Origin: an uncultured Candidatus Saccharibacteria bacterium
Lineage (GTDB): Bacteria; Patescibacteriota; Minisyncoccia; Phycocordibacterales; UBA2100
DNA length: 64,000 nucleotides
Reading direction: 5' to 3'
Assembly (NCBI GenBank): GCA_964350885.1
Contig: CAYGKV010000003.1
Span: forward strand, 15,444-79,443
The notes under the pieces were generated by a model, which searched no databases, was not told the origin of the DNA, and saw only the letters and a program-made list of their open reading frames with translations. Numbering within the stretch: the first letter of the stretch is position 1; the number at the start of each line of letters is the position of its first letter. Below, piece by piece: positions 4,086 to 33,396 of the stretch. The position numbers and the translations under genes were made by a program.

Positions 4086-4087
4086 TT

Positions 4088-12498: not shown

Positions 12499-15400
12499 AT
12501 GAATATTAGTATCTTTGGTCGCACGCAGTCCTTGCTCGGTAAGGCGGGATCTATCGTTGTCATATTGACGCTCGCTGTAACTCCTCTTTCACAAGCGTTC
12601 CCTCTCGTGGCGAATGCGTTGGATACGGGCTTCAATTCTCCCAGCGCAACACACACACCGAATTCCTGGGTGAACGGGCTCAACGCAACGTCAAGTAACA
12701 ACATTTATGCAACATCAACAGCAAATGGTAGCGAACAAGGGTATGCCACTTTCGGCATCCCGGCCATCGCTATAGGATCAACGATTGATGGCATTGAAGT
12801 ATCTATTGATGCAAAGGCCGACGACAACGATTGTGATATTGGGGTCAGGCTCTCGTGGGACGGTGGCGCTACCTGGAGTTCTCAGATCGTAAATACGACG
12901 ATAGGAACAAATGAGGATTCCGAGACTTTCGGTGGCCCCTCAAGTCAGTGGGGTCGTGCCTGGGTGGAGGGCGATTTCACAAACTCTAACTTTGTTGTAA
13001 AAATCCAAGCTATCGACGGCGATGGAGCCGCCAATGGATCTAGCGACTGTCAGGCGGCAAGCGATAAGCTGTACGCAGATGTAGTCCAAGCGAAGGTATA
13101 CTATTCTGCACCGGTACTCAATCCCGGCACATCCGTTGTCATCAACACGATTTCCGATCCTATCAGCGGAACGTATACAGCTCCGTTCCCAACGTTCTCT
13201 TGTCCGGCAAACCCGCTCTACAACCCGGTAAGCATCACGGGGAGTGGCACAGGTTCGGCACCTCCAGGCAACATCAGTCAGTACAAAGTACAGATTGATT
13301 GGGGAGATGGGATCATCGAAAACACCGCAACCTCGACATTTACCCCGAATGCCGGGCAGGGGAACTTCTCTTTCGTATTTAATGGTCAGCATACTTATAC
13401 AACCAATGGGAACATGGTGATAAAGGCTCGCCTCTACCACTCGCAGCCACCGGGGGGCGACAACCAGGCTGATGCTGTGATCTCGATCACGACCTGTATC
13501 TTCGTCCCTCCTGCAAATACTGCGGTAGTACTTGTAAACAAAGTCGTGAACGGTGGCCCTGCTGTACCGAGCGACTTCACGCTCAATGTCACCAATGCTA
13601 GCTCAACGCCGAGCTCCTTCAATCCATCAACAGCGACCACGACCGTCGTCATTACTCCAGGCGCGTATTCGATTACCGAGGCTCCAGCAGCGAACTACAC
13701 ACCGACGTATTCGTCTGGATGTTCCGGTACGTTGACGATTGGCTCGACGACGAAATGTCTCGTCACCAATACTTACGTTCCTCCTACCACTGGTATGCTC
13801 ACGCTCGTAAAGCAGGTCACCAATAACAACGGCGGGACAGCTGCTGCAGGCGCATGGACGCTTGCCGCTTCGAGCACCTCGGGCACCACGGTTATTTCTG
13901 GGGTTACGGGCGCGGGTGCGGTAACAAACGCTACGGTCGCTCCGGCCGCATACGACCTCTCAGAGTCAGGCGGACCTTCTGGCTACACAGCTTCTGCATG
14001 GGTCTGCACAGGAACTGGTACACAAAATGATGGAGATACGGTTACACTCGCAGCTGGCCAAAGCGCGACCTGTACCATCACCAACGACGATGTGGCTCCG
14101 GTGCTCACACTCATCAAGAACCTCATCCAAGACGAGGGAGGCGCAGCATTCCATGTCCTTGCTGATTGGCTCCTTTCCGCAAGCAGCACCTCCAACAACA
14201 CACTCACGGCGTTTTCAGGTGCGTCCGGTGTGACGAGCGATAGTACTTTCAAGGCTGGTGTGTACACGCTTGCAGAGTCTGGTCCTTCTGGATACACCGC
14301 GAGCGGCTGGGTATGCCCAAGCGGCAACCTCTCGGGAGCTTCTCTCACCATCGGTCTTGGCGAAAACATCACCTGCACAATCACCAACGACGACATCGCT
14401 CCGACGTTGACTCTCGAAAAGACAGTCGTGAATCTCGACGGTGGTACTGCAGGCGAGTCCGATTTCCAAGGAAAAATTGACGGCTCTGATGTTGCATGGG
14501 ACACACCGATTACACTTACTGCGGGGGCTCACACAGCATCTGAAGCTAGTGGCGTTTCTGGATACTCTGCTTCCGCATGGGGCGGAGATTGTGCTGAAGA
14601 TGGGACGATCACGCTTTCTCCAGGGCAAGATGCGGTCTGTACCATCACCAACGACGACATCGCGCCGGGGCTTACCATTAAGAAAGTAGTCACGACCGAC
14701 AATGGCGGCAATGAGACCTCTGCCGCTTTCCAAGGATATGTAGAAGGCAATCCAGTCGCTTGGAATGACGCGCAGGTACTCGAAGCGGGGACATACACAT
14801 TGAGCGAAGACGCTGTTGCCGGCTATCAGCAATCGGCATGGGTCTGCGTAGGGGGATCTCAAAGCGGAAGCGACATAACGATAGGTGTAGGAGAGACGGT
14901 TGAGTGTACTATCACCAACGATGACATCGCTCCTTCAATCACGCTTATCAAAGAGGTTACCAACGACAACGGTGGTACTGCCGGAGCAAATGATTTCGGT
15001 CTTTCCATTGGTGGTACTTCGGTTGAGTCGGGGGAGACGCTCGCGGTTGATTCCAACGAAGCAATTTCTATCGATGAGCTTGGGCTCGCGGACTACGCTT
15101 TCGCTTCAATTACCGGGGATGAAGGATGTCCATCAGAACTCGGTGGCACAGTAATGCTGGACGAAGGTGAAGACATCACCTGCACTATCATCAACGACGA
15201 CATCGCACCGTCTCTTACACTCAATAAGATTCGCATTAACGATGATGGCGGCACACAAGCGGAGAGCGCATGGACATTGACAGCAACAGGTAATCAAGAG
15301 CCTCCGGTAGTTCTCTCTGGTCCCGGCGCGGCTGGTTCGACAGATGTCGTTTCCGGTGCGACGTTCAAGGCTGGCACATACACGCTCTCCGAGAGCGGTC

Positions 15401-16629
15401 CCGAAGGCTATGCGGCTTCAGCATGGAGCTGTGTCAAGAATGATGGCGACCCTGTCGAGGGAAGCTCGATAGCGCTTGCGATTGGAGACGAAGCTACATG
15501 TACCATCACCAATGACGACAGCGAGGCGGTGCTCAAGATTGTTAAGAACACAATCGGCGGCAACGGCACGTTCGGATTCGACGTCTCAGGAGGCAACGAC
15601 TTTGCCACCACGACGAGCGTCACGACGGTCGAAAATACTGGTTCTGTCGACATCGCGCTCGAAGCCGGCACATATGACGTATCAGAAAACGTCCCTGCCA
15701 ATTGGGATCTCACGAATATGGTCTGTAATGAATCGGGGATTGAGGTCAACAACACTGATTCCGAAGTAATGCTTGGGGTCGGCGATACCGTGACCTGTAC
15801 CTTCACCAACGCATCCACACTCGCCAATGTTTCAGTAGAGAAATCTGTCGACGATGCGTCTCCAGACGCTGGCCAGCAGGTAACCTTCACACTCACAGTT
15901 ACGAACAGTGGTCCGGCTACTGCTACGGATGTTGAAGTTACCGATGTCTTGCCTTCAGGCTTGACCTACGTTTCTGACAACGGCGCGGGTGCTTACGCCA
16001 CTTCAACTGGAATCTGGACAATCGGCACGCTCCTGAGCGGTTCGTCTACGGCCCTGAGTATCGTAGCGACCGTCAACGCGTCGGCCGGACAAACGGTAAC
16101 GAATACCGCATCCGTTACGACCGAGAACACAGATTCTGACACTGAAAACAACACCGACGGTGTGTCTATAACAGTCAATACTCCTCCAGCTCCTCCTTCG
16201 GGTGGTGGCGGTGGCGGCGGAGGCGGAGGTGGTGGCCTAAACAATCCTATCTACGGTGTACCAGGGCAAGTCTTGGGCGCAGCGACATCAACGCTTCCCG
16301 AGCTCCCTGCAGGTTGTTCAGCACTTCTCAACACCTACATGCGCATGAATAAGAGCAATAACTCCGCATCTGAAGTCGCGAAACTCCAGCAATTCTTGAA
16401 CGACACCATGAAGGCGGGGCTTCCTGTCACGGGCTTCTTCGGATCCGCGACCGATAAGGCGGTACGCGCATTCCAAACGGCAAATTCCGAGCAAGTTCTC
16501 GCACCGTGGGGATTGAAAGCGCCGACAGGATTCGTGTACAAGACGACTCAGCGCTGGATCAACCTCCTCCACTGCCAGTCGCTCAACATTCCAATGCCCA
16601 CGGATCTCACCCCGTACCGAGGCGAATAA
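12499..16629 (+). CDS. Giant cell-surface adhesin-like protein: signal peptide, ~9 tandem prealbumin-like (SpaA/SdrD-B-type) repeats, DUF11 domain, poly-Gly linker, C-terminal peptidoglycan-binding (PG_binding_1) domain
   Basis: 1376 aa. The signal is MNISIFGRTQSLLGKAGSIVVILTLAVTPLSQA. A unit containing G.YTLSE.GP.GY.AS.W.C...TCTITNDDIAP recurs every ~90-105 aa. DUF11 is recognised by NVSVEKSVDDASPDAGQQVTFTLTVTNSGPATATDVEVTDVLPSGLTYV. A G12 run follows, then LQQFLN...GLPVTGFFGSATDKAVRAFQ. Confidence 0.8.
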   Translation: MNISIFGRTQSLLGKAGSIVVILTLAVTPLSQAFPLVANALDTGFNSPSATHTPNSWVNGLNATSSNNIYATSTANGSEQGYATFGIPAIAIGSTIDGIEVSIDAKADDNDCDIGVRLSWDGGATWSSQIVNTTIGTNEDSETFGGPSSQWGRAWVEGDFTNSNFVVKIQAIDGDGAANGSSDCQAASDKLYADVVQAKVYYSAPVLNPGTSVVINTISDPISGTYTAPFPTFSCPANPLYNPVSITGSGTGSAPPGNISQYKVQIDWGDGIIENTATSTFTPNAGQGNFSFVFNGQHTYTTNGNMVIKARLYHSQPPGGDNQADAVISITTCIFVPPANTAVVLVNKVVNGGPAVPSDFTLNVTNASSTPSSFNPSTATTTVVITPGAYSITEAPAANYTPTYSSGCSGTLTIGSTTKCLVTNTYVPPTTGMLTLVKQVTNNNGGTAAAGAWTLAASSTSGTTVISGVTGAGAVTNATVAPAAYDLSESGGPSGYTASAWVCTGTGTQNDGDTVTLAAGQSATCTITNDDVAPVLTLIKNLIQDEGGAAFHVLADWLLSASSTSNNTLTAFSGASGVTSDSTFKAGVYTLAESGPSGYTASGWVCPSGNLSGASLTIGLGENITCTITNDDIAPTLTLEKTVVNLDGGTAGESDFQGKIDGSDVAWDTPITLTAGAHTASEASGVSGYSASAWGGDCAEDGTITLSPGQDAVCTITNDDIAPGLTIKKVVTTDNGGNETSAAFQGYVEGNPVAWNDAQVLEAGTYTLSEDAVAGYQQSAWVCVGGSQSGSDITIGVGETVECTITNDDIAPSITLIKEVTNDNGGTAGANDFGLSIGGTSVESGETLAVDSNEAISIDELGLADYAFASITGDEGCPSELGGTVMLDEGEDITCTIINDDIAPSLTLNKIRINDDGGTQAESAWTLTATGNQEPPVVLSGPGAAGSTDVVSGATFKAGTYTLSESGPEGYAASAWSCVKNDGDPVEGSSIALAIGDEATCTITNDDSEAVLKIVKNTIGGNGTFGFDVSGGNDFATTTSVTTVENTGSVDIALEAGTYDVSENVPANWDLTNMVCNESGIEVNNTDSEVMLGVGDTVTCTFTNASTLANVSVEKSVDDASPDAGQQVTFTLTVTNSGPATATDVEVTDVLPSGLTYVSDNGAGAYATSTGIWTIGTLLSGSSTALSIVATVNASAGQTVTNTASVTTENTDSDTENNTDGVSITVNTPPAPPSGGGGGGGGGGGGLNNPIYGVPGQVLGAATSTLPELPAGCSALLNTYMRMNKSNNSASEVAKLQQFLNDTMKAGLPVTGFFGSATDKAVRAFQTANSEQVLAPWGLKAPTGFVYKTTQRWINLLHCQSLNIPMPTDLTPYRGE
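13500..15820 (+). repeat. Intragenic tandem repeats (~265-320 bp period, about 9 units) inside the adhesin gene
   Basis: The codon block acctg(t/c)ac(c/a)atcaccaacgacgacatcgc(t/g)ccg (TCTITNDDIAP) recurs at 14071, 14371, 14635, 14902, 15178 and 15496, with degenerate copies at about 13760 and 15790. Confidence 0.8.
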
Positions 16630-16645
16630 GTGACGCGTCTCTCGC

Positions 16646-16676
16646 AAAAAACCGCCCTCCACAGAGGGCGGTTTTG
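16646..16676 (+). terminator. Rho-independent terminator after the adhesin gene
   Basis: aaaaaccgccctc-cacaga-gggcggtttt hairpin followed by a T-run. Confidence 0.6.
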
Positions 16677-16705
16677 CGTGTGGAGAGGTGTGAGAGAATG
16701 GAGAG

Positions 16706-17797
16706 GTGAGAAAAAAGAACCGAAACGTTTCTCGGCTCCGTTCGTTGTTGCCTCGTGGTAAGCGGGAGCGCAGACGTATAGAGCTTTTAGGCGGACTCGC
16801 GATGGGTGTTTTCTCGGCGCTCGTTGTATCCATCTTCGTAGCCTCTTCCATCGATCGCTATCTCGTCAGCTCGAATCAGTATGCATCCGTGATCGCGGGA
16901 GTGCTCGTAGATCTGACGAACGGAGACAGGGCGCAGAATAATTTACACACGCTTACGATGAGTACGGCGCTTGTTGCAGTCGCTCAAGCGAAGGCAAATG
17001 ACATGGCGGCGAAGAGCTATTTCGCGCATGTCTCTCCCGAGGGGCTCGACCCGTGGCACTGGTTTAAGCAGGCAGACTACGCTTTTGATTACGCGGGAGA
17101 AAATCTCGCAGTCGACTTCTCCGATTCGGTCGACGTGGAGCGGGCGTGGATGAATTCGCCGACACACCGCGAAAACATTCTCAACCCGAAATTCACCGAG
17201 ATCGGCATCGCTACCGCTGAGGGGATATTTCAAGGGCGCTCCACGACCTTCGTGGTGCAGGCATTTGGCACGCCATCAGAATCTGGTATCCAGCGTACAG
17301 TTATTGCCGTCAGTATTCCTGAGAGTCCAAACGAAACGGCGCTCGCCACCTCAGCTCCCCCGACGGTTCTCGGTGAGACACAGCAGCCTACGACTCCGGC
17401 CCCGATAGAGAAAAAATTAGTGCAGACGATTCAACCGAAAGAGGTCGAAGTTCTCGGGACTACGATCGAGACGAATACGCCCACGCCCAGCGCACCCACG
17501 CTCGCTGCGAGTGTAGAATCCTCGCCCGATTATGCGCCGATCTGGGCGCACCTTGCGACCTCACCGCGGAGCATGTTGCAGTACGCGTATTGGATACTCG
17601 CATTTTTGATAGTTGTCGCACTCGGGATTGCAACAGGGTTTGAATTGCACATCCACCATATTCGCAAAGCAACCTCCGCGGGCATCATGCTTTCTTTCAT
17701 GCTAGTGATGTTTCTTGCTGCCAATGTATTCGTCTTTACGAGCCCCACCCTCACGCCACAGGCGAGCATGGCCGCGGCTGCCGCGGGAGCGCATTAA
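16706..17797 (+). CDS. CAP/SCP (PR-1-like, YkwD-type) domain protein with N- and C-terminal TM segments
   Basis: CAP signatures AKSYFAHVSPEG...AGENLAV...VERAWMNSPTHRENIL.PKFTEIGIA; a Thr/Pro-rich linker; a C-terminal hydrophobic helix (YWILAFLIVVALGIATG). The true start is possibly the ATG at 16802. Confidence 0.7.
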   Translation: MRKKNRNVSRLRSLLPRGKRERRRIELLGGLAMGVFSALVVSIFVASSIDRYLVSSNQYASVIAGVLVDLTNGDRAQNNLHTLTMSTALVAVAQAKANDMAAKSYFAHVSPEGLDPWHWFKQADYAFDYAGENLAVDFSDSVDVERAWMNSPTHRENILNPKFTEIGIATAEGIFQGRSTTFVVQAFGTPSESGIQRTVIAVSIPESPNETALATSAPPTVLGETQQPTTPAPIEKKLVQTIQPKEVEVLGTTIETNTPTPSAPTLAASVESSPDYAPIWAHLATSPRSMLQYAYWILAFLIVVALGIATGFELHIHHIRKATSAGIMLSFMLVMFLAANVFVFTSPTLTPQASMAAAAAGAH

Positions 17798-17830
17798 CCC
17801 GCCTTGACGGGGGAGGGGGGAAGACGTACC

Positions 17831-18658
17831 ATGAAAGCGTTAATCGTAATCTCTTTTGCTATGAATAATGTCATTCGCACAGCACTTCCAACCGCCATCT
17901 TGGGCGCCGTCCTCCTCTTTGGTGTAGCAATCGCAGAAGCGAGTCATTCATGGGGGAGCTACCATTGGGCACGTCAATCGAATCCATTCACTCTCAAGCT
18001 CGGCGATAATGTATCGTCCGCGTGGGATTCGTATCTCACCACGACGTCAACCGAGTGGAGTCTTTCGAGCGTTCTCGATACGACCATTGTCACGGGGCTT
18101 GCCGGTAGGAATTGCAAAGCGACTACGGGACGCGTCGAGGTGTGCAACAGTAGATACGGCCAAAATGGCTGGCTTGGGCTCGCTCAGATTTGGATTTCTG
18201 GGACGCATATCACCAAGGGCTTGGCAAAGATGAATGACACCTATTTCAGTATGGCGCAGTACAACAACGCCGATGAAAAGCTTCATGTAATGTGCCAGGA
18301 AGTCGGCCACACCTTTGGTCTTGGTCACACGAGCGAAGATGGCACCTCGCAAGGGACGTGCATGGACTATTCGGATAGCCCGAGTAGCACGCTTCCAAAC
18401 CAGCACGACTACGACCAACTTGCGGCCATCTACGCGCATCTCGATTCCTTCAACTCTTTTAGCAGCGCCTTCTCTAGCGTGCGTGGCGCATCTGCCGAAG
18501 CACAGAGCGGAGATTTCGAGGACGCATCGGAGTGGGGTAAAGAGATCCATCGTTCAGCTAACGGTCGCTCGTCCGTGTTTGAGCGCGATCTTGGTAATGG
18601 CAACAGGCTCCTGACGCACATCTACTGGGCCGAGCCGCGCGGGCACCATCACGAATAG
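17831..18658 (+). CDS. Secreted metzincin-like protein (M43/cytophagalysin-like) with atypical QExxHxxGxxH site
   Basis: Signal peptide MKALIVISFAMNNVIRTALPTAILGAVLLFGVAIAEA; LHVMCQEVGHTFGLGHTSEDG (Gln where the first zinc-binding His is expected); a downstream Met-turn candidate GTCMDYSD. Confidence 0.55.
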   Translation: MKALIVISFAMNNVIRTALPTAILGAVLLFGVAIAEASHSWGSYHWARQSNPFTLKLGDNVSSAWDSYLTTTSTEWSLSSVLDTTIVTGLAGRNCKATTGRVEVCNSRYGQNGWLGLAQIWISGTHITKGLAKMNDTYFSMAQYNNADEKLHVMCQEVGHTFGLGHTSEDGTSQGTCMDYSDSPSSTLPNQHDYDQLAAIYAHLDSFNSFSSAFSSVRGASAEAQSGDFEDASEWGKEIHRSANGRSSVFERDLGNGNRLLTHIYWAEPRGHHHE

Positions 18659-18739
18659 TCGCATGTAAGGTTTGCGCCATTCACTCTGTTTTCTCTCGGA
18701 GTCTGTTTTTGTTGGTTGGCCCGCCAAGGTCGAGAATTC

Positions 18740-18785
18740 GAAGGTTCAACCTTCAACGAACAGTCCCGTTGAAGGTTGAGCCTTC
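18740..18785. repeat. Nested palindrome / 19-bp inverted repeat
   Basis: gaaggttcaaccttcaacg-(8 nt)-cgttgaaggttgagccttc, with each arm itself palindromic (gaaggtt.aaccttc). Confidence 0.5.
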
Positions 18786-18985
18786 TACCGCTCCATAACA
18801 TCTCTCGCTCGTGCCGCAGTGGGGGCACTCCTTAACGCCTCTGCGCTCAACTCAAGTCTTGAAGTAGCCGACGTGATCTCGATCTTCAACGCAGCAAATC
18901 CCTCAGGCGACTTCGAGGCGGCCAAGGCGCAGTACACGTTCCCAGAGAACTGCCCACTCAATTAACAACTAACAATTATTAGTCC

Positions 18986-19012
18986 AAAAACCGCTCAACA
19001 GAGCGGTTTTTG
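18986..19012 (+). terminator. Rho-independent terminator with no annotated upstream gene (orphan, possibly an sRNA end)
   Basis: aaaaaccgctc-aaca-gagcggttttt. Confidence 0.55.
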
Positions 19013-19144
19013 GGTGTAAGGGGATATGCACAGGTAATCCACTATTACAGCACGCCATCCACATGCAATTTTCATGTAAGCGGAGTAAACTTCACGATGG
19101 AATTATCAATATTTATTAGTGCGCAATAATAGAAAATAATATTT

Positions 19145-20620
19145 ATGAAAAAAACACTTACAAAGTTTGCTCTCGCGACAGCGCTCTTGGTCCCGTTCGC
19201 GTTCGCTGCGCCCGCCTCGGCCGCAACGGTCTGGGATACAACGGGAAGTTATGTAGTGGGGTTCCAGCTCACCGGTGACCCGACAGTTTACGCTCACGAC
19301 GCCGTTCTTTCACAGGACGCGTTCGATGCCGTAACGGGGTCCGGCGGGTATCCTGCAGGTGGACCATATGGGTACGCATGGACTATTACCGGCGGCACGG
19401 TCGTGGATGACACCATAAGTCTTGCCATGTCGTATACGCTTGGCGCTGTCTGCGATATGACGATGATCGGTACGATTGCACTGGATGGGTCTATGAGTGG
19501 AACGTGGTCAGATAATTGCGGAGGCCCGCGCACGGGTACATGGTCAACCACAAGTGGGGCCGCAGTCAGCACAAGTCCTGAAGTGCATATCTTCAAGTAT
19601 GTTGATGGCGTTCAGGCCACTGCGGCCAATGCCGATAGTTCCGCGTTTCCGATGCTGACGACTTTCAACTCCAGCGTGTATGGCCTTGTCACGGACGCTC
19701 CGTTCACCCTAAGTCCGACCGGATGGGCAGTTAGCGACGATCCGTACGAAGCCTCGTACCTTGGCGGAGCTGCGGGTGACGATTACGCGACACGCGAAGT
19801 CCTTACGACTTCGATTGTAGGCGCATCGTGTGACGGCTCGAAAGACTTCAGACTAATCGGGTATTCAACTGGTGGCTCGCTCGCCGCGGCTGAGGCGGCA
19901 GGCCCCAGCGCTACCGAGCCAAGCTTCACTAATCTCCAGAGTGACAAGTACGTTATCGTGTGGAACAGCAAATGTGTTCCAAGCGTGCCGGTAATTACGT
20001 CGCCATCGAACAACATGTGCGTAACCTCCGCTAATCAGCAGTTGATTGACTGGACAAATTCTACCGGAGGTGTAAATCCTATTACCTACCAGTATCAGGC
20101 GTTCTCTGATTCTGCTTATACCGCCTCTGTTTATGACAGCGGTATGACCTTGGCCTCATCACAGATTCCAACCCCAGGCACTCCAGCCGGAACCTACTAC
20201 ATCAGGGTTAGGGCACAGGATGGCAATGGAACCCTCAGCGATTGGAGCAATGGGTCATCAAATCCGTACAAAATCGTTGTAGGCCCCGACACCTTCACAT
20301 GGAGTCAGCTGCTGTCCCCGCTGAACATTTCTGGTAAGACATACAATACCGGAAGTACCATCCCCGTTAAGGTCCAGATAAAAGACGGGTGCGGCGTCGG
20401 AGTAAACAAGGGATTGCCGACACTAACGATAAAAGACAGTTCGTCGGCGACGGTGTCAACCGGCCCCTTTAGGTTCGATTCTTCGGCAGGACAGTATATC
20501 TTCAACTGGAGCACTAAAGTCCCCACGATGCTCCCAACGGGAACTTATACGATCACCGTTGACTCTCTTGCCGGCGTTACCGATCCGGCACCCACAACTG
20601 CAGCTATCCTGGTTAAGTAA
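19145..20620 (+). CDS. Secreted hypothetical protein (491 aa) whose C-terminal ~100-aa domain is shared with the LCAT-like lipase
   Basis: Sec signal MKKTLTKFALATALLVPFAFAAPASA. The C-terminus ...GSTIPVKVQIKD...SSAGQYIFNWSTKVPTMLPTGTYTITV parallels ...GSTVPVKFQLKN...GTSQQYIYNWSTKGLMPGYWYRIYAQL at the C-terminus of the 30346..33282 ORF. Confidence 0.6.
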   Translation: MKKTLTKFALATALLVPFAFAAPASAATVWDTTGSYVVGFQLTGDPTVYAHDAVLSQDAFDAVTGSGGYPAGGPYGYAWTITGGTVVDDTISLAMSYTLGAVCDMTMIGTIALDGSMSGTWSDNCGGPRTGTWSTTSGAAVSTSPEVHIFKYVDGVQATAANADSSAFPMLTTFNSSVYGLVTDAPFTLSPTGWAVSDDPYEASYLGGAAGDDYATREVLTTSIVGASCDGSKDFRLIGYSTGGSLAAAEAAGPSATEPSFTNLQSDKYVIVWNSKCVPSVPVITSPSNNMCVTSANQQLIDWTNSTGGVNPITYQYQAFSDSAYTASVYDSGMTLASSQIPTPGTPAGTYYIRVRAQDGNGTLSDWSNGSSNPYKIVVGPDTFTWSQLLSPLNISGKTYNTGSTIPVKVQIKDGCGVGVNKGLPTLTIKDSSSATVSTGPFRFDSSAGQYIFNWSTKVPTMLPTGTYTITVDSLAGVTDPAPTTAAILVK

Positions 20621-20632
20621 GGAACAATTATC

Positions 20633-20668
20633 AGCCCAAAACCCCGCCCATGTGGCGGGGTTTTGGGT
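20633..20668 (+). terminator. Rho-independent terminator
   Basis: cccaaaaccccgccc-atgt-ggcggggttttggg. Confidence 0.6.
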
Positions 20669-20755
20669 TGGGGACAGCTGCGTAGGAGGGAAGGGAGAGC
20701 GGCGGTACTATTCAAGCAGTAGTCTTATTATGTTTCCTATTATTTTTATAACCAT

Positions 20756-21292
20756 ATGAACAAATGGGTACTCGGTGCGATAGCTTTGGTGGTGATCGGT
20801 GGAGGGTTTGCGGTTCTTAATCAGAACGGTTCAAGCATCGACTCTCTGGCAGCAGCCGGTGGCGCGTTTGATCAGTACGGCTACAACGACAAGGCGCGCA
20901 TTTTTAATGGCCTTGCAGACGGAGTGGACAGGAATCTTGATGGCATGGTATGGGGGAGTCCGACCTATGCGAAGGACAGACTCGTAATGAAGTGGAACGC
21001 TGCATGGGACGCCTGCAACGCCGCAGGCAACAACTCCGAGAGCGCATGCTCGACGGCGTGGCTGGACAACGAATGGAATGGCGCTGCGGGCGGCTCGGGC
21101 GAGGTCTGGCACTACAAAATAATCTGGGTCGGCCCAGACGGACCTGCAAGTAAGTACTGGAAGCCGGGCGGATACTCGGTGTGGGGTAATTATGAGGTCT
21201 TGATGGATCAGGGGGTCGTTCTCGGAGACAGCGGCGCGGTGCATACGTGGTTTACGCGCTCGACACCCAACGGCTACGGTGCCAAGAAATAA
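20756..21292 (+). CDS. Membrane-anchored extracytoplasmic hypothetical protein
   Basis: N-terminal anchor MNKWVLGAIALVVIGGGFAV followed by a Trp/Gly-rich soluble domain; a terminator hairpin lies at 21329-21352. Confidence 0.5.
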   Translation: MNKWVLGAIALVVIGGGFAVLNQNGSSIDSLAAAGGAFDQYGYNDKARIFNGLADGVDRNLDGMVWGSPTYAKDRLVMKWNAAWDACNAAGNNSESACSTAWLDNEWNGAAGGSGEVWHYKIIWVGPDGPASKYWKPGGYSVWGNYEVLMDQGVVLGDSGAVHTWFTRSTPNGYGAKK

Positions 21293-21465
21293 GACTGTTT
21301 CGTTTCTCTCTGATCGGATAGTCCGAGACCCCGCCAAAAGGCGGGGTTTTGGTGCTAGAATGTCGGATCGGCGGTAGGTGTAAGGAAAGTCTGGGCGGGT
21401 CGTCTTATCTTTGTGCCCAAATTAGTCGTTTATTAATTATTAGACCACAAAACTATTCATTAACT

Positions 21466-22695
21466 ATGTCAAAATTCAACAAGACAATAGCGATGGTGCT
21501 CGTAATGAGCGTCATGGTGCCGAGCCTCGCGTTCGCCCAGACCACATCCACCAGCAGCATCCAGGCGCTTCTCGATCAGATGAAGGCGCTTCAAGCGCAG
21601 ATCATTGGGTTGCAGCAGCAGCAAAAGACTCTCGTCCAGCAACAGCAGACGAATATCCAGAATCTCGTCCAGACGCTCAGACAGGGCGACAGGGGAGAGA
21701 ACGTGAGAATTCTTCAGCAGCTTCTCGCGCAGGATCCGACCATCTTCCCTGAAGGTACGGTATCAGGCTTCTTTGGCCCGCTCACTGAAAAGGCCGTCAA
21801 GCGATTCCAGCAAAAGCACGGTATTGAGCAGGCGGGCAACGTCGGCCCCAAGACCCTGAAGAAGCTCAACGAACTCTTCTTCGGCAAGTCCGGTAAAAGT
21901 CACGATGATAATAAAGGCAAGGGTAATGAAGACGACGACGACGAGGAGAACGACCACGGTAGCGGCTCTATCGTGATCTGTCACTTCTCACGTGGTGATT
22001 CTTCTTCAAAGACGATCAGCGTCGGGGGCAAGGCATATGCTGCGCACCTGAAGCACGGCGACGTACTCGGAACTTGTACGGGAGGTGGCAATCCTTCGAC
22101 ACCCGACACGATTGCACCGATCATCTCGAATGCAGTGATCTCAGCGATCACCAGCACGAGCGCTTCTGTATCGTGGAATACCAACGAACAAGCAACGAGC
22201 AAGGTCTACTACTCGACGACCACGCCGGTCAACCTCGCGACCGCACTCACCGTGAACAACGGATCTCGTGTAATGAATCGTACGCTCTCGCTCACCGGTC
22301 TTATCCCGAGCACGACGTACTTCTACGTTCTCGAGTCCAAGGACTACGCCAACAACACGGCGACGACCTCGACCGCGAGCTTCACGACGGCCGCAGCTCC
22401 CGACACAACTGCTCCGGTAATTTCCGGAACATCAGTCTCGGCTATCGCTACCACCACCGCAACGGTGTCGTGGACGACCAACGAAGCAGCGACAGGGAAG
22501 GTCTACTACTCGACTACTTCGCCAGTCAACCTCGGGACCGCGCTCACCATGAGCAACGGCTCCCTCACGACGGGCCACACGTTTGTTCTCACGAGCCTCG
22601 CAGGAGCGACGACGTATTACTACGTCCTCGAGTCCAAGGATGCTGCCAACAACACGGCAACGACCTCGACCGCGAGCTTCGTAACGACGAACTAA
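21466..22695 (+). CDS. Secreted protein: Q-rich coiled-coil, PG_binding_1 domain, acidic linker, two fibronectin-III-like repeats
   Basis: Signal MSKFNKTIAMVLVMSVMVPSLAFA; a QQQ-rich segment; GDRGENVRILQQLLAQ...GFFGPLTEKAVKRFQQKHG; DDDDEEND; then two ~99-aa repeats (...SVSWNTNEQATSKVYYSTT.PVNL.TAL...YFYVLESKD.ANNTATTSTASF). Confidence 0.6.
   Translation: MSKFNKTIAMVLVMSVMVPSLAFAQTTSTSSIQALLDQMKALQAQIIGLQQQQKTLVQQQQTNIQNLVQTLRQGDRGENVRILQQLLAQDPTIFPEGTVSGFFGPLTEKAVKRFQQKHGIEQAGNVGPKTLKKLNELFFGKSGKSHDDNKGKGNEDDDDEENDHGSGSIVICHFSRGDSSSKTISVGGKAYAAHLKHGDVLGTCTGGGNPSTPDTIAPIISNAVISAITSTSASVSWNTNEQATSKVYYSTTTPVNLATALTVNNGSRVMNRTLSLTGLIPSTTYFYVLESKDYANNTATTSTASFTTAAAPDTTAPVISGTSVSAIATTTATVSWTTNEAATGKVYYSTTSPVNLGTALTMSNGSLTTGHTFVLTSLAGATTYYYVLESKDAANNTATTSTASFVTTN
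22106..22692 (+). repeat. Two tandem ~297-bp intragenic repeats encoding FN3-like modules
   Basis: The protein repeats DT(I/T)AP(I/V)IS...ASF(T/V)T are nearly identical twice. Confidence 0.7.
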
Positions 22696-24164: not shown

Positions 24165-25365
24165 GTACACAAAAATCCGTGATGCCGCCGACGCGCGCCT
24201 CCTCAAAATGTTGCGGCCCTTCGCGAAGATTTCCTCGAAGCGCCCGGCAGAAGGGAAGTCGCGTACCACGCGCATCCACAAGGACTCCGTTCCCGAAAAG
24301 AAGCGTCCCTCGATGTTGCGTTTCCCGATACAGGACCAGATCTTTTTCGCCAAGCGATTGGGGATGATATTGCGCGCTGGCATGCCGATTATGGAAGGGC
24401 TCCACATGCTCGGGAGCGAGACACGCACGGGCTCGGCGAAATACATATTCCAGAGCCTTATCATCGATGTATCCAACGGCCAGCCGCTCTCCTCGGGGCT
24501 TGGTAAGTTCCAGCGCATTTTCGGAGAATTTTGCATCAATATCGTGAAAGTGGGGGAGAGCTCGGGCACTCTGCACGAAAATCTCGACTACCTTGCCGAA
24601 GAACTCAAAAAGAAACAGACGTTGAGGCGCAAGGTCATCGGCGCTCTCATGTATCCCGCGGTCATCGTCTTTGCGACGGTCGGCATCACGGTCATGCTCA
24701 CGGTCTATATCTTCCCCAAGATAATTCCCATTTTCCAAAGCGTGAAAGCCACGCTCCCGCTCTCGACGCGCATGCTCATCGTCATTTCCAGTTTTTTGAG
24801 CACCTGGGGCTGGTGGCTTCTTGGCGGACTGTTTGTATTTGTGATCGGATTCGTTGTGCTGATGAGAATGGTTCCGCTCTTCCACCTGTGGATGGACGTG
24901 ATTCTCTTGCGCATCCCGCTTTTGGGAAAATTATCTTCATATTACAATCTCGCCAACAGCGCGCGCACGCTCTCGCTACTTCTCAAGAGCGATGTGGGGG
25001 TGGTGCCCGCGATGGAGCTCGTAGCGGCAAGTACACGCAATCACGTGTATCGTCGAGCTCTGTACAAGGCCGCGGAGCACATCACTAAGGGACAAAAAAT
25101 CTCTTTGCAACTGCAGAGTTCACCGCGTCTCTTTCCACCCCTCATGACACAAATGGTCTTGGTAGGTGAATCAACTGGCAATCTCAGCGGCTCGCTCATG
25201 TTTCTTTCTGACATGTACGAAGAGCAGATAGATGAACTCACCAAGAACCTAACGACTCTTATCGAGCCAGTTCTCATGATCGTGATGGGGCTTCTCGTCG
25301 GATTTATCGCAATTTCTATCATTACCCCCATCTACTCCATCACGCAAAGCCTCACGCCACAATGA
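24157..25365 (+). CDS. pilC: Type IV pilus inner-membrane platform protein PilC / GspF family
   Basis: Two T2SS-F domains and 3 TM helices; the start ATG at 24157 overlaps the pilB stop (ATGAGTAA). Confidence 0.85.
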   Translation: MSKYTKIRDAADARLLKMLRPFAKISSKRPAEGKSRTTRIHKDSVPEKKRPSMLRFPIQDQIFFAKRLGMILRAGMPIMEGLHMLGSETRTGSAKYIFQSLIIDVSNGQPLSSGLGKFQRIFGEFCINIVKVGESSGTLHENLDYLAEELKKKQTLRRKVIGALMYPAVIVFATVGITVMLTVYIFPKIIPIFQSVKATLPLSTRMLIVISSFLSTWGWWLLGGLFVFVIGFVVLMRMVPLFHLWMDVILLRIPLLGKLSSYYNLANSARTLSLLLKSDVGVVPAMELVAASTRNHVYRRALYKAAEHITKGQKISLQLQSSPRLFPPLMTQMVLVGESTGNLSGSLMFLSDMYEEQIDELTKNLTTLIEPVLMIVMGLLVGFIAISIITPIYSITQSLTPQ

Positions 25366-25865
25366 TGCATATGAATGTAATGGGAAGACAAAGGGGGGTA
25401 ACTTTTTTTGAAGTACTCATTGTTATGGGCATCTTTGCGCTGGTTAGTAGTTTCGCTCTTCTGGTCAGTATGCAAAGTTATCGAAGCGCAAATTTTCGTT
25501 CCGACCGCAATCTTCTGGTCGCAGCGCTCCAGCGTGCTCGCGCACAATCCATGAACAACGTGTGCCTCGGCACTGTCTGCACTGATGGAAAAGCGCACGG
25601 TGTCGCCATCCAGCCAATCGATCACCTGGATTCTTTCGTCGTATTTCAGACTTCAAGTGGAGGTGGGTACACAGGGCGGGCTTCTTCCGACATAGCGCAT
25701 GACGCGATATTTCCTGTAAACCCGAATTCCGTCATCACGCAAACCACGATCGTATTTACGCAACTTTCTGGTACTGCTCCCGCATCCGTTATAGAAATCG
25801 ACCAAGCGGGATATGATTCTGACGTCCACGTCGAAACGAATGGCCGGATTTGGTGGACAATTTAA
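25362..25865 (+). CDS. Prepilin-type N-terminal cleavage/methylation domain protein (minor pilin)
   Basis: RG|VTFFEVLIVMGIFALV: Gly at -1, Glu at +5, followed by a hydrophobic helix. Confidence 0.6.
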   Translation: MMHMNVMGRQRGVTFFEVLIVMGIFALVSSFALLVSMQSYRSANFRSDRNLLVAALQRARAQSMNNVCLGTVCTDGKAHGVAIQPIDHLDSFVVFQTSSGGGYTGRASSDIAHDAIFPVNPNSVITQTTIVFTQLSGTAPASVIEIDQAGYDSDVHVETNGRIWWTI

Positions 25866-25868
25866 TGT

Positions 25869-27383
25869 ATGAATCGCGGATTTTCCATTATTGAACTCCT
25901 CATCGCGATGTCGTTGGCCACGATAGTCATGAGCGGTGTTGTGGTCGGCACGGTGGGAAGCGTCGGGAGCTTCGGCTCTGCGATAGGGGGTAAGCAGACA
26001 GTCGTGAGCGATGGTGAGATCAACACCATGGCACTCCACAAAGCGCAGGATCTCATCGAAGGGGCTGCTGCAGTAGCGCGTACAAATTATTCCGCGGTCA
26101 TTCCGACGACCGCCGTCGATTCCTCGGGAGGCCTAACATATACGAAGACACTCACCATTCCCACGGCATATGCCACACAGTGTTCGCAGAGTATCGCGAG
26201 CACCGTGTCTTGGAGCGCCACCTACGGCCGCACGCTCTGGGTCGGCGCGACAACCACCATTACAAATATTCCTGAGATGCTCGCACTCGGGGGTGATTGC
26301 GCGATCACACCACCACCCATCGGCGGATGGAATCCACCTCATATCTATGCGTACGACACTTTTTCTGGCAAACCAACTGCACTGGACGCGCTGGAGCATA
26401 TAGCATATATGGGCGAAGATAACTCACCCTGGCTACGTATTGCCGATGCGCGCACTGTACCTCTTCCAATTCCGCACAACGGCGATTTATTTATTCCTCT
26501 TCCATACGCCAATAACTTCAACTCGACTGGCAAAGTCCTCGATCAGATAAATGATGTTGACGTGTATAAACATGAAGCTAGTGGGAAAGTGTACGCATTT
26601 GTCGCCACAGCAAGCACGACAGCGCAACTTGTGGTGATTGACGTTACAGATATTCAGAATCCCACCATTGCCGTTAACGGTACCGGTATTCTTGCCAAAC
26701 GGAACCTTACCGATGTTACCGCAACTGATTCAACAGCGTGGGGTTGGCGCGTTTATTACTACAACGGAAAGCTATATATAACTGCACGAGAGACGGCGGG
26801 CCCCGAACTACATATCTTCGATGTCACGGATCCAAGAGACCCGACGGAAATTGGACGGAAAGAATTAAATACTACCGTAAATGACTTTGTGATAAGCAAT
26901 GGCCTCGGATATTTTGCGGTTCAAAGCGATGCGACAGGTCCGCTGCGGGTTTATAACGTGGCTACTCCGACGGGTATCACCGAAGTCGTTGGTGCGCGGG
27001 GCAACATTGCTGGAACTGAGAATGGGTTATCGATATTTTTGATCGGTCCTCGCCTCTATTTCGGCCGTCAAAAAAATTCCGGCCCTGAATTTTATATGTT
27101 AGACGCAAGTAGCCCTCTCACGGCATCAGGAGGGTTGCCGATTCTCGCATCGAAAGAGATTGGAGACGACGTAACTGATTTGCGAGTTGTTGGTCCGTTT
27201 GCATTTGCAGCCGTTAAGCACGCAAACGAAGAGTTTCAAGTATGGCCTTCGGACCTTTCGGGGCCCGCTATCAACATCTACAACTTCGGAAACGTCATCA
27301 ACGCAGGATTTGATTATAATAATGAGTGGTTTTTTGTCACTGGCGGATCGACTCCTAATTTTAAAATACTTTACAGTCCTTGA
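25869..27383 (+). CDS. Pilin-like protein fused to an LVIVD-repeat beta-propeller (candidate pilus tip adhesin)
   Basis: N-terminus MNRG|FSIIELLIAMSLATIV (class III signal). The C-terminal ~330 aa carry repeated LVVIDVTDIQNP / LHIFDVTDPRDP / LRVYNVATP / FYMLDASSP motifs. Confidence 0.6.
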   Translation: MNRGFSIIELLIAMSLATIVMSGVVVGTVGSVGSFGSAIGGKQTVVSDGEINTMALHKAQDLIEGAAAVARTNYSAVIPTTAVDSSGGLTYTKTLTIPTAYATQCSQSIASTVSWSATYGRTLWVGATTTITNIPEMLALGGDCAITPPPIGGWNPPHIYAYDTFSGKPTALDALEHIAYMGEDNSPWLRIADARTVPLPIPHNGDLFIPLPYANNFNSTGKVLDQINDVDVYKHEASGKVYAFVATASTTAQLVVIDVTDIQNPTIAVNGTGILAKRNLTDVTATDSTAWGWRVYYYNGKLYITARETAGPELHIFDVTDPRDPTEIGRKELNTTVNDFVISNGLGYFAVQSDATGPLRVYNVATPTGITEVVGARGNIAGTENGLSIFLIGPRLYFGRQKNSGPEFYMLDASSPLTASGGLPILASKEIGDDVTDLRVVGPFAFAAVKHANEEFQVWPSDLSGPAINIYNFGNVINAGFDYNNEWFFVTGGSTPNFKILYSP

Positions 27384-27384
27384 T

Positions 27385-27867
27385 ATGAACCGCGGATTCA
27401 CGCTCATCGAGACGCTCGTCTACCTCGCGCTCTTCGCGCTTATTATCGGCGGCTTGGTTGTTACCACCTACCTTCTCTTCCAAACGAGCGATCGCTACCA
27501 GACCCGTGCGACGATGCAAGAAGAGAAAAATTTTATACTCGCGAAAATCACGTGGGCCCTCTCACAAGCTCGGTCTGTGTGTGATCCAGCAGCTAATACC
27601 TCGGGCACGACGCTCTCTGTCGTTACTCTCGGTGGGACGTGCTCTCCTCCAGACATCACGGTCGCTCTTTCGGGGTCAGATGTACAGTGGGGAGGCGTGG
27701 CGCTCAACAATGCGAGCGTGCGCGTGGATCGTCTTCTATTCATTCACACCTACGCAGGAGGTAGCAATCCCGATAGTGTCGAGGTAGGGCTTACGATAAG
27801 CGCCAACACCCCGACAGGCATGCAGATTTCTGAGAGAGCTTCGACGACGCGCTACATACGAAAATGA
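27385..27867 (+). CDS. Prepilin-type pseudopilin
   Basis: MNRG|FTLIETLVYLALFALIIGG. Confidence 0.6.
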   Translation: MNRGFTLIETLVYLALFALIIGGLVVTTYLLFQTSDRYQTRATMQEEKNFILAKITWALSQARSVCDPAANTSGTTLSVVTLGGTCSPPDITVALSGSDVQWGGVALNNASVRVDRLLFIHTYAGGSNPDSVEVGLTISANTPTGMQISERASTTRYIRK

Positions 27868-28331
27868 AACGCCAAGAACACGAGAGAGGGTTTATTGCGC
27901 TGATGTCGGTCATGGTCATTTCAGCTGTTTTGTTGGTGCTCTTGTTTACTCTCGGCGCGTCCTCGTTCCTGAATCGTTTTGATGTGCTTGATTCCCAAAA
28001 CAAACGGGTGAGCCTCGCACTCGCGGAAGCATGCGTGAATATGGCAATGATCAATATCGCACAAGATTCTGATTACGGTATCACGCCATCGTTACCATCT
28101 GCTGGTGAATGCGTGGGGGTGTCGGACGCATGTGTCTCTGGATCAAAAAAGATCTGCAAAATCTGCCAAGTTACGATTGTGGGCAGCGAAAAAGAAATTA
28201 TTACTCGTGCCGCCTATGGAGGCACGTACACCAATCTCAGAATACGAGGCACCCTTGGCTCCACCAACTTTTCAGTGAGCCGGTGGGAGGAATTTACCCC
28301 TTATTCTGGGTCATGTACTACAACACCGTAA
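27864..28331 (+). CDS. Pilin-like protein lacking Glu+5 (PilX/GspK-like minor pilin)
   Basis: ERG|FIALMSVMVISAVLLVLLF with Met at position +5; overlaps the upstream stop by 4 bp. Confidence 0.5.
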   Translation: MKRQEHERGFIALMSVMVISAVLLVLLFTLGASSFLNRFDVLDSQNKRVSLALAEACVNMAMINIAQDSDYGITPSLPSAGECVGVSDACVSGSKKICKICQVTIVGSEKEIITRAAYGGTYTNLRIRGTLGSTNFSVSRWEEFTPYSGSCTTTP

Positions 28332-30345: not shown

Positions 30346-33282
30346 TCATCTTAACCCAATTATGACTGAATAAGTCTTACCATCCTCCAACTGTGCATAA
30401 ATACGATACCAGTACCCGGGCATTAAACCCTTTGTGCTCCAGTTATAAATGTACTGCTGGCTCGTGCCGTCCCATCGGTACGAAGTGCCACTCGTGCCGG
30501 CAACTGCGTACACGGGCTCGTCCACGGGTGCGTTCAGTGGCGAGAGTCTGACTGGAGTTATCCAAACGGGTGAAGCTGATGATTGAATAGGAGTGCCAGC
30601 GGTATTTTTGAGTTGAAACTTCACAGGTACGGTACTGCCGCCCTTAAACACGCTCGGCGTGAGTGCGGGGTTAATCGTAGGGTCATCGATGGGCTGTAGG
30701 AATCCGGTCCACAGATATTCTATTTTGAGCGTTCCTGCCACAAACTCCGTGAATTCGTAGTCATGTGAGGTAAGAGTGCCGATAGTGCATGTGATGGGGT
30801 AGATTCCAACCAGGCTCGCGCTGGTCGCCGTCGTTGAGCAACGCGCGCTTCCCGCGACGTCGTTGCTTGAGGGTGTGTCATCGCCGACGAATCCGCTCAG
30901 TGTCCACGTGAGAGGTGGAATTACTCCACCGATCATCATCGTCTTGTTGGCAGTCGTTAGAGTTAGTTTCGGTTTTGGTAGCACTACGGTGTCGTCCAGC
31001 TTAGGCACCACAATGTGCTCAACAATGCCGTCGCCGTTTTTGTCGATGAGGAGTGGATTTTCTTCAGACAGATCGATCGATGTCTCTATCGAGACGATGG
31101 TGTCGGGCGTCGTTGGCATATCTTTCCATGTGCTGCTTGCAACGACCGTATCACCTCGGAGCTGCTCAGCGCGGAAGGTGAAGGTGCCTGTCTCGTAGCC
31201 ATCCATCGTGATATGAAGCGAGGAGGTGGCATCTGTGAAAAGATATTTCACGTCACCGAACTCTGTGTAATACGTGCCGGGGATTTGTTCTTCCACCTGG
31301 CCGGTAGTCGTTGAAATGCCAGTGTGACGGCCCTGATTGTCGAATAGATCGAGCGTGAGCGGGGAGTGAAGGGAGTAGCGGAGGCGAGTGCCAGGGAACG
31401 AGGGCGATTCAGTGGTCAGGTATGAGTAATTTGAAATCGGCGACAGCTCATTTGTAACTGTATCGGAAATAAATGACAGCAGTTCCTGTATCTCGAGAAT
31501 ATCTGCATGACCGAAAGAGAGGAGGCCACCGAGTGTGGCAATCGGATGATGTTTGTTGTAGTCGTAGATGTTTGCCCAATAATTCACCGCACCTGCGGCA
31601 GCGCTCCACAAAGCGCTTGGCACAACCACGGTGCCATCGCCATCAATTGTGAAATTTGCTTCGGGCTTCACGCCCGCACCTTTTTGTTTGTATGTAATTC
31701 CGCTCACGGTCGTTGGCACGCCCCATCCGGCTATTTGGATCAAGTCTATTCCTGTTGGAGGAACCCAGTTGTCGAGATTGGCATGCAACGTTTCCGCTGC
31801 CGACAGGAGCGAATCGCTCATCTGGATGGGCTGATCTTTGTCACCCGTCTGGGAGTCGCCTCTCCCATAGGTATCGGTGAGAAATTGATGCAATGCGGGT
31901 CCTGAGTGGATTTCGTTTCCATACCTTGCTATCCAATCTGTCAGTGATGCATCGAATGTAACGACTGGATCATCCACATATGTGAAGTAATTGGCGGATG
32001 GTAGTAATTGATAGAACATTGGGGACGTACTTGCAAAAGTACGCACTGTCTCTTCAGAAAGAATGAACGAAATCACATCGGCAGGGAGCCCTTGATCATA
32101 TCCATGCAGTCCGGCAGCCACGGCCATCGGTGTACCTGCCTGCGGCACGGCCACAAAAATCATTTTGTCGATGAGGTCAGAAGCTTCTGCGCCAAGTACT
32201 TCGGTGAGTTGTTTGGCAAGTAATCCGCCGTTGGAGTGCGCTATGACTGTTACCTTCCCAGATTTTGAAGAGCCAGCGAGTCTCCGCAATTCCTGAATGA
32301 CGTACGGAGTGGATGTGGCGCGTTGGTTACCGGAATAATACAGCTTTCCACCCACCTCGTTTCCATACGCGAGGATGTCGTCGAGGGAGAGCCGCCAGTC
32401 GTAGGCCATGGGTTGCCAATCGTTTATATGGCCCTGATCTTTCAAGTCATCCATTTTTGAGATAAAGGACAGGTATATATTTTTGCCGGTCGGGAGTTCA
32501 TCAAGCACGTCGCCGATCTTTGTGTAGATCTCGGGATGGGCACTCGAACCGTCAGCGCTCATGAAGAGGTCTTGCACGTCGCCATTGTTGAGTGGCTCCC
32601 ACAGCTTTTGTTCAGGAACTTCGACTACCTGCGGTCGATACAAGCGGCTCGATTCGATACCGGGCAAGAAGAGCACGTTGGAAAAACAGTTTTGTGTGCA
32701 GAGCATTGGGGCCGGGCCGGGTTGGCCAGAAACCACGAAGTACCCCATCGTGGATGTCCCGTAGAAGGTTACGCCCGAACCCCCAACTTTCGATATCCGT
32801 AATGACGCGTGATCATAGACCAGGGGCAACGTCGTCGAAGCCGCTGCAGCAGCAGGGTTTCCTGCATCATCAGCTTGTCGGTAATTAAACAGACGGGGAG
32901 TAATTCCGGTAAATGGCGGAACGGCTACGGTCGTTTGGTACTGCTGTCCGGGTACACTCCAATTGTTGGTATTGGGGCAGGGCTTCGTCTCGGCCGCGTC
33001 AAGCCAACACAGAAGTCGGAGGCCTGCACGGTTAAACGGTGCAAAGAACGGGAATGTCCGATCGTCAAGGGCTATAATTTCGACGGTGTCTACTCGTGAA
33101 CCTCCGAGCGTGTTTGGGAGTGCAATTTGCCAGTAATTTCCAGTAGTGGTGATGGTTGTATAGATCTGTGAGCGATCTGTTTGCGAGAGTAGAACGTCGG
33201 CAAATGTATCGAGGGGGGATGCGAGCAGAACAAAAATTGTACCGAGGAGAGGGGAGGCGATACGCGACTGCGCGAGTCTCAT
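30346..33282 (-). CDS. Large secreted LCAT-like (lecithin:cholesterol acyltransferase / PF02450-type) alpha/beta-hydrolase lipase with shared C-terminal domain
   Basis: Signal MRLAQSRIASPLLGTIFVLLASPLDTFA; an LCAT N-motif VLFLPGIESSRL; the YDWRLS hallmark; a nucleophile elbow VTVIAHSNGGLLA (AHSxG as in Bacillus LipA); and the shared C-terminal domain ending ...QQYIYNWSTKG... Confidence 0.65.
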   Translation of the reverse strand: MRLAQSRIASPLLGTIFVLLASPLDTFADVLLSQTDRSQIYTTITTTGNYWQIALPNTLGGSRVDTVEIIALDDRTFPFFAPFNRAGLRLLCWLDAAETKPCPNTNNWSVPGQQYQTTVAVPPFTGITPRLFNYRQADDAGNPAAAAASTTLPLVYDHASLRISKVGGSGVTFYGTSTMGYFVVSGQPGPAPMLCTQNCFSNVLFLPGIESSRLYRPQVVEVPEQKLWEPLNNGDVQDLFMSADGSSAHPEIYTKIGDVLDELPTGKNIYLSFISKMDDLKDQGHINDWQPMAYDWRLSLDDILAYGNEVGGKLYYSGNQRATSTPYVIQELRRLAGSSKSGKVTVIAHSNGGLLAKQLTEVLGAEASDLIDKMIFVAVPQAGTPMAVAAGLHGYDQGLPADVISFILSEETVRTFASTSPMFYQLLPSANYFTYVDDPVVTFDASLTDWIARYGNEIHSGPALHQFLTDTYGRGDSQTGDKDQPIQMSDSLLSAAETLHANLDNWVPPTGIDLIQIAGWGVPTTVSGITYKQKGAGVKPEANFTIDGDGTVVVPSALWSAAAGAVNYWANIYDYNKHHPIATLGGLLSFGHADILEIQELLSFISDTVTNELSPISNYSYLTTESPSFPGTRLRYSLHSPLTLDLFDNQGRHTGISTTTGQVEEQIPGTYYTEFGDVKYLFTDATSSLHITMDGYETGTFTFRAEQLRGDTVVASSTWKDMPTTPDTIVSIETSIDLSEENPLLIDKNGDGIVEHIVVPKLDDTVVLPKPKLTLTTANKTMMIGGVIPPLTWTLSGFVGDDTPSSNDVAGSARCSTTATSASLVGIYPITCTIGTLTSHDYEFTEFVAGTLKIEYLWTGFLQPIDDPTINPALTPSVFKGGSTVPVKFQLKNTAGTPIQSSASPVWITPVRLSPLNAPVDEPVYAVAGTSGTSYRWDGTSQQYIYNWSTKGLMPGYWYRIYAQLEDGKTYSVIIGLR

Positions 33283-33396
33283 ACGGCATGTATACCACAC
33301 CGACGTTTTTCGGTGCTCGTGTCCCTGTGGATTGCCGACGTACACACCGAACCTACGCTATAGCGTAGGTTCGGTGTTTTCATTGCACAGGAATAA

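Follow-up and report, generated by a model that had tools for sequence, protein, structure and literature searches.

The 64,000-nucleotide window analyzed here (positions 15,444 to 79,443 of the forward strand of contig CAYGKV010000003.1, from an uncultured Candidatus Saccharibacteria bacterium) encodes two exported proteins whose C-terminal ends resemble one another, and the role that this shared end, the PxKF domain of NCBIfam, may play in the proteins that carry it is the subject of the present analysis. Both C-termini almost certainly belong to the PxKF family (NF038114), with gene B encoding a canonical member and gene A a shorter and more divergent variant.

Two exported proteins with related C-termini

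Gene A (P0290; 19145..20620, plus strand), taken from the open-reading-frame list, encodes an exported protein of 491 residues. Its translation opens with a Sec-type N-terminus, MKKTLTKFALATALLVPFAFAAPASA/A, for which direct reading and a hydrophobicity heuristic predict a signal peptide of residues 1-26 (19145..19222, plus strand; ...APASA/A), and it closes with a short PxKF-like domain over residues 383-491 (20291..20617, plus strand) that is followed directly by the stop codon. Gene B (P0150; 30346..33282, minus strand), identified from the open-reading-frame list, Pfam and a public gene call, encodes an LCAT-like lipase. The sequence-only reading that singled out the two proteins gave the length of this enzyme as 979 residues, a figure that needs amending: public gene calls start at MRLAQS and yield 978 residues, and an in-frame upstream GTG at 33345 yields 999 (30346..33345), the numbering used for the domains below. 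For B, the sequence and the same heuristic, which flagged the protein as signal-peptide-like, predict a signal peptide at 33199..33282 (minus strand; MRLAQSRIASPLLGTIFVLLASPLDTFA/D). Further along lies an LCAT-type alpha/beta-hydrolase core with an AHSNGG nucleophile elbow (residues 291-452; 31990..32475, minus strand; PF02450, 34 bits against a cutoff of 21), followed by an MBG_2 domain of the YGX type (residues 794-873; 30727..30966, minus strand; PF18676, 51.4 bits, E 1.6e-13), with DUF7379 also among the Pfam matches. The canonical PxKF domain stands directly behind the MBG_2 domain, at residues 877-999 (30349..30717, minus strand), and ends in ...IGLR and the stop codon.

The Pfam scan returned no match over the last 120 residues of B and only sub-threshold Ig-like and MG2 matches on A, and the combined Pfam and NCBIfam scans found no other recognized wall-binding or anchor domain (PG_binding_1, LysM, SLH, WxL and the like) in either protein. 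An identical copy of A is present in a public collection on a 102,306-bp metagenomic contig that carries B as well, and the nearest relatives of that contig are metagenome-assembled genomes (MAGs) of Saccharibacteria and other Patescibacteria.

Homology of the two ends was established by several independent comparisons, and the shared domain proposed for the 491-residue protein and the lipase is thereby confirmed. BLASTP aligned residues 384-458 of A with residues 877-972 of B at 26 % identity (E 1e-6). NF038114, which has the short name 'rightmost', the product name 'PxKF domain-containing protein' and a curated cutoff of 35 bits, matched residues 880-999 of B over its full length (model positions 1-113 of 113; 105.8 bits, E 1.6e-30) and residues 390-459 of A at 28 bits (E 2e-6); this lies below the cutoff, so A would go unnamed by the curated model. 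A hidden Markov model (HMM) from which A had been withheld still gave it 36.6 bits, the runner-up among the window's 924 six-frame pieces reaching 6.7 bits, and hhalign aligned five A-type sequences with a PxKF profile lacking them at a probability of 99.6 % (E 7e-24). A search in the reciprocal direction, with an HMM made only from the five A-type sequences, recovered the terminal PxKF domain at almost every one of 79 genome loci and gave no other match. Together, the withheld HMM, hhalign and the reciprocal search rule out chance similarity of the two ends. A word-indexed search with the C-terminus of A alone found no relatives, and its relatives were obtained by full-length search. The short version recurs in P0291, P0292, P0293 and P0298, C-terminal each time, and these A-type relatives straddle the cutoff of NF038114, scoring 26.6-42.3 bits with P0291 (42.3 bits) above it.

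The motifs GST[IV]PVK[VF]Q and QYI[FY]NWSTK, on which the original comparison was built, are indeed present in both proteins, and both domains are the last element before the stop codon. B resembles the curated family throughout, with a full-length model match, the PVKF motif and C-terminal placement, whereas A departs from it in having PVKV for PVKF, a different last strand and no central loop insertion of about 20 residues containing a VDE motif. The defining strand accordingly reads GSTVPVKFQ in B and GSTIPVKVQ in A, with P and K retained and F replaced by V, and the domain, about 110-120 residues overall, measures about 120 in the canonical form of B and about 105 in the variant of A. An alignment shows P9, G27, S28, T29, P31, K33, N92, T95 and D112 of the canonical domain to be invariant; the residues that remain invariant across canonical and A-type copies together are the first-strand proline, G-S-T-x-P-x-K and N-W-x-T. 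The window contains two PxKF copies only, those of A and B.

Distribution, placement and passengers of the family

The two copies in the window belong to a very large family. A profile search of 1.84 billion representatives clustered at 50 % identity returned 12,926 proteins at E<=1e-3 and 4,581 at E<=1e-10, which bears out the prediction of a wider family and rules out a private duplication. Counts in species-representative genomes rest on the 79 best loci, which fall in Patescibacteria (Saccharibacteria, Paceibacteria, Nomura-, Adler- and Lloydbacteria), Actinomycetota (Microbacterium, Kribbella, Nocardioides, Cryobacterium, Actinokineospora and others) and Chloroflexota, so that the named genome loci come essentially all from single-membrane lineages. 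One carrier contig is labelled 'Omnitrophica' and has neighbors of the Candidate Phyla Radiation (CPR) type, and several CPR MAGs hold at least two PxKF paralogues per genome. The domain of B is 48-70 % identical to the copies in the 79 best loci and 50-57 % identical to those of Actinomycetota and Chloroflexota. With copies in these phyla, and with RefSeq relatives already named 'PxKF domain-containing protein' through NF038114, the domain is not a CPR-specific tag, as was first suggested, and is not new; the window adds two members to a curated family that is already known, and the short variant in A falls under the cutoff of its model. A full-text literature search found no publication on the PxKF domain, a literature search on Saccharibacteria lipases returned nothing informative, and tblastn against plasmids gave no match.

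Sequence constraint on the domain is high. Identity above 50 % across phyla is unusual for an extracellular sandwich domain, and among 15 CPR lipase orthologues the mean identity to B is 55-64 % in the PxKF domain, 38-58 % in the LCAT core and 11-19 % in the N-terminal 200 residues. An identity of 50-70 % over three phyla, in a domain that is more conserved than the catalytic core to which it is attached, is easier to reconcile with a conserved ligand than with a simple spacer.

Placement at the very end of the protein is nearly universal. In complete genome copies the stop codon lies 0-1 residues after the domain in 82 of 83 cases, a more divergent metagenome sample has the domain terminal in 78 of 79 copies, and about 146 of the best 150 representatives (117-2351 residues) end with it, amounting to some 98-99 % of copies in the samples checked. 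In two of the exceptions among the 150, P0097 and P0196, the domain is followed by a tail rich in Arg, Pro and Ala that resembles a read-through or frameshift artefact. One metagenome copy, L128, appears to be genuinely internal and is considered below. The family C-terminus follows the pattern V-x-[IV]-G-L-[RK], with R or K as the last residue in 245 of 256 sequences.

The proteins that end in this way are predominantly exported and otherwise diverse. Signal-peptide-like N-termini were detected by the hydrophobicity heuristic in 83 of 113 representatives beginning with M, the remainder being mainly fragments. Among 50 scanned representatives, LCAT lipases account for 28, and the other passengers include MBG_2, Big_13 and Big_3_3 domains, RCC1 propellers, beta-helices and SpaA_2 domains; glycoside hydrolases are essentially absent from this set. 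OmpL47-type barrels occur as passengers in Actinomycetota, and in P0293 the A-type domain forms the C-terminus of a choice-of-anchor C protein. All 38 lipase loci come from Patescibacteria-type MAGs. The checks proposed by the sequence-only reading thus turn out in its favor: the domain is nearly always C-terminal, most full-length carriers have signal-peptide-like N-termini, and the passengers are unrelated to one another.

The N-terminal and middle parts of protein A (residues 1-380; 19145-20290) are common to as many as about 70 of 77 relatives, which have other C-terminal ends, including SdrD B-like repeats, RTX calcium-binding repeats, SpaA-like domains and a beta-helix. Coverage of A by the 77 relatives peaks at residues ~120-300 and falls to 4 across the PxKF domain. 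Since its N-terminal and middle kin differ at their ends and only four have a PxKF-like one, A is best described as a mosaic of shuffled modules.

Predicted fold and candidate role of the domain

AlphaFold2 gave confident models of both domains that are all-beta, in agreement with the beta-sandwich originally proposed; the B domain is predicted with seven strands (predicted local distance difference test score, 85.5) and the A domain with the same strand order (93.8). Foldseek placed the A model closest to the macroglobulin (MG) domains of alpha-2-macroglobulin (A2M), C5 and C3 (TM 0.6-0.74), among them human A2M MG2 (2p9r; TM 0.67-0.74, root-mean-square deviation 3.4), Salmonella A2M (4u4j; TMq 0.71) and C5 MG4 (6rpt; TMq 0.62). 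This MG-like fold accords with the weak MG2 sequence match of A (PF01835, 28.7 bits, below the cutoff of 32.8; no match on B), and the likeness is one of fold only: sequence identity is 13-19 %, and MG domains stand in internal tandem arrays of protease-trapping proteins whereas the PxKF domain is single and terminal. Foldseek gave only generic Ig-like matches for the B model (E >= 0.025), neither model showed similarity to CnaA or CnaB isopeptide domains, and a profile search of PDB sequences returned one insignificant match, the Ig-like module of a GH9 protein (3k4z; E 0.45). The models point to a macroglobulin/Ig-like beta-sandwich that would serve as a binding or scaffold module rather than as an enzyme. 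From the strand assignment and the alternation of residues we infer that the invariant polar residues S28, T29, K33, Q35, Q88, N92 and T95 sit on the loop preceding strand B and on the neighboring strands B and E, where they would make up a single contiguous site.

We tentatively favor, at slightly less than even confidence, a model in which the PxKF domain is a non-covalent envelope-retention or docking module. Its passenger, a lipase in the case of B and a beads-on-a-string protein in the case of A, would first be exported and relieved of its signal peptide, after which the folded terminal domain would hold it at the cell envelope by binding, without a covalent bond, some envelope component that is conserved in many lineages. 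Contact would be made by the invariant polar and aromatic cluster on the pre-strand-B loop, strand B (G-S-T-x-P-x-K-F-Q) and strand E (Q-Y-x-Y-N-W-x-T). Such a domain would act in the manner of WxL, SLH or dockerin modules rather than as a cleaved signal. Support for retention would come from the terminal position, the signal peptides, the lack of a second anchor, the varied passengers, the sequence constraint, the fold and the single-membrane hosts, taken together. By analogy with WxL, SLH, GW and dockerin modules, the PxKF domain may be a folded, anchor-less module on diverse exported proteins of single-membrane bacteria; it differs from them in that no sequence relationship was found and in that they are less strictly terminal and less conserved across phyla. 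The interpretation suggested at the outset is partly supported: its expectations on placement, export and family size hold, those on lineage specificity and novelty fail, and surface sorting or anchoring stays a candidate role.

Several observations weigh against envelope retention. The sole convincing internal copy seen (L128; metagenome contig Ga0209062_1007247, 1578-1823) occupies residues 518-619 of an open frame of more than 929 residues and is followed by about 310 further residues, which indicates that terminal placement is not structurally obligatory. One relative, on a 1.1-kb MAG fragment, is labelled Nitrososphaera, an archaeon that has no peptidoglycan. The passenger and taxon samples are biased toward sequences near B, and the contiguity of the site that the polar residues of strands B and E would make is read from strand assignment and residue alternation. 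Finally, the Pfam and NCBIfam scans of A and B revealed no likeness to known wall-binding modules.

The strongest alternative, unlikely in our view, is that the domain is a target- or substrate-binding tip that recognizes a host-cell surface, a polymer or a lipid interface and delivers a lipase or adhesin passenger there. Saccharibacteria are epibionts of Actinobacteria. In favor of such a tip are the preponderance of LCAT-type lipases among CPR copies, the 50-57 % identity of the actinobacterial copies, the many carriers that are adhesin-like repeat proteins and the frequency of MG/Ig-like folds among binding modules. Set against this, a highly similar domain is found on unrelated passengers in free-living Actinomycetota and Chloroflexota, the glycoside hydrolase passengers expected of a carbohydrate-binding module are essentially absent, and a binding tip offers no obvious reason for being terminal in nearly every case.

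A true sorting signal, by which dedicated machinery would translocate, cleave or covalently attach the passenger as PorU and PorV do for the C-terminal domain (CTD) of the type IX secretion system (T9SS), appears improbable. Like the T9SS CTD, the PxKF domain is a folded beta-sandwich that closes proteins with a signal peptide and very diverse passengers, and T9SS CTDs often share its basic last residue; the multiple paralogues in several CPR genomes and the A-type copy that ends P0293 also fit, the choice-of-anchor C family (TIGR04362) being named for alternative C-terminal anchors. Yet the NCBIfam scan found no LPXTG, PEP-CTERM-type or T9SS (TIGR04183/TIGR04131) match in either PxKF domain, the lone TIGR04183 trace falling outside it (A 334-361, E 0.1), and the domain is longer and far more conserved than T9SS CTDs and typical sorting domains. 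Its hosts are not T9SS-bearing diderms of the Bacteroidota/FCB type and have no outer membrane to cross. The C-termini of A, B and the family show no hydrophobic helix or tripartite tail; where LPXTG/sortase, PEP-CTERM/exosortase and PGF-CTERM signals consist of a motif, a helix and a basic tail, these proteins end in a V-x-[IV]-G-L-[RK] beta-strand, and no conserved linker or cleavage motif lies upstream of the domain.

Nor does a processing enzyme recur near the domain. Clustering of neighbors across the 79 loci yielded no PxKF-specific partner gene, and the one recurrent neighbor family, a multi-pass membrane protein of 76-162 residues encoded directly downstream, was counted by script behind 21 of the 38 LCAT-type genes and never behind the 34 non-LCAT ones, with one further LCAT locus (L060), where the small gene overlaps the lipase end, standing outside that count. 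Because it tracks the LCAT passenger only, this small protein belongs to the lipase and not to the PxKF domain. A histidine-kinase-like cluster was considered as a sorting partner and set aside; it lies near 16 loci of mixed phyla and is not specific to PxKF.

A purely structural role, as a terminal cap, folding nucleus or oligomerization module that has no specific ligand and is perhaps stabilized by a cross-link within the domain, from the invariant Lys of PxKF to the invariant Asn of NW, is similarly improbable. In its favor, most MG/Ig-like domains are scaffolds, the PxKF domain adjoins stalk-like modules (MBG, OmpL47 or Big) with no linker in between, and the models would place the invariant K and N on adjacent strands with aromatic flanks and a near-invariant acidic residue close by. 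Against it, an identity of 50-70 % across phyla is rare for a cap or spacer, as is stronger conservation than that of the attached enzyme; Foldseek found no isopeptide-domain similarity, and the acidic residue and D112 are not retained in the A-type variant. An ester-bond or isopeptide domain proper was also considered; there is neither an invariant His nor a Cna-like fold match.

If envelope retention or sorting is indeed the function of the PxKF domain, a single HMM would be enough to pick out the proteins displayed on the surface of CPR bacteria, and likewise those of many Actinobacteria and Chloroflexi. The envelopes and host-contact proteins of CPR bacteria are poorly understood. Secreted LCAT-type lipases would then be surface enzymes, which CPR bacteria may need for harvesting host lipids. 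A still broader proposal, which we regard as doubtful, is that single-membrane bacteria (CPR, Actinomycetota and Chloroflexota) use PxKF generally to display proteins on their surface by the C-terminus. A conserved envelope receptor or processing factor would recognize the folded domain, which would thereby decide what exported proteins remain on the cell, as a monoderm counterpart of the T9SS CTD, and would position LCAT-type lipases at the host contact in epibiotic CPR.

Genes surrounding A and B

The small membrane protein gene that accompanies B lies at 29908-30336 on the minus strand, and further examples occur at 10377-11335 in L001, 6781-8253 in L007, 936-1946 in L009 and 4839-5844 in L039. 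Members are separated by 4-40 bp from the LCAT-type lipase gene upstream, occur at times in two or three tandem copies, have no Pfam match and share the motif ...SLITY[KR]MR[DE]E[VI]F..W..FA.WW[VI]P...; the protein may be a partner of the lipase or a self-protection (immunity-like) protein.

Orphan 3' fragments of the PxKF domain lie just downstream of the complete lipase gene in several CPR genomes (L010, 10831-11091 and 11675-11974; L015, 10876-11043; L037, 10820-11119; L014, 17034-17657 and 17882-18112). In L014 they include a 207-residue open frame with MBG and PxKF domains and no passenger (P0009), behind which lies a truncated copy of the small membrane gene. Such fragments look like what remains after the end of the lipase gene and the partner downstream of it were duplicated in tandem.

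Gene A stands within a row of exported-protein genes (12499-22695). The row includes a 1,376-residue protein with eight SpaA_2 prealbumin-like domains, DUF11 and a C-terminal PG_binding_1 domain, a CAP-family protein, a zinc-metalloprotease-like protein (HTFGLGH), a family-less exported protein of 178 residues and a protein combining PG_binding_1 with fibronectin-III. PG_binding_1 is found in genes neighboring A (12499-16626 and 21349-22692) and is absent from A and B themselves. A cluster of short genes at 25362-28875 carries type IV pilin-like motifs for N-terminal methylation, and in L003 and other Saccharibacteria loci these genes keep their synteny with the PxKF lipase gene. At 2618-4517 the window has three tRNA genes (Gly-CCC, Arg-CCT and Phe-GAA) within 2 kb.

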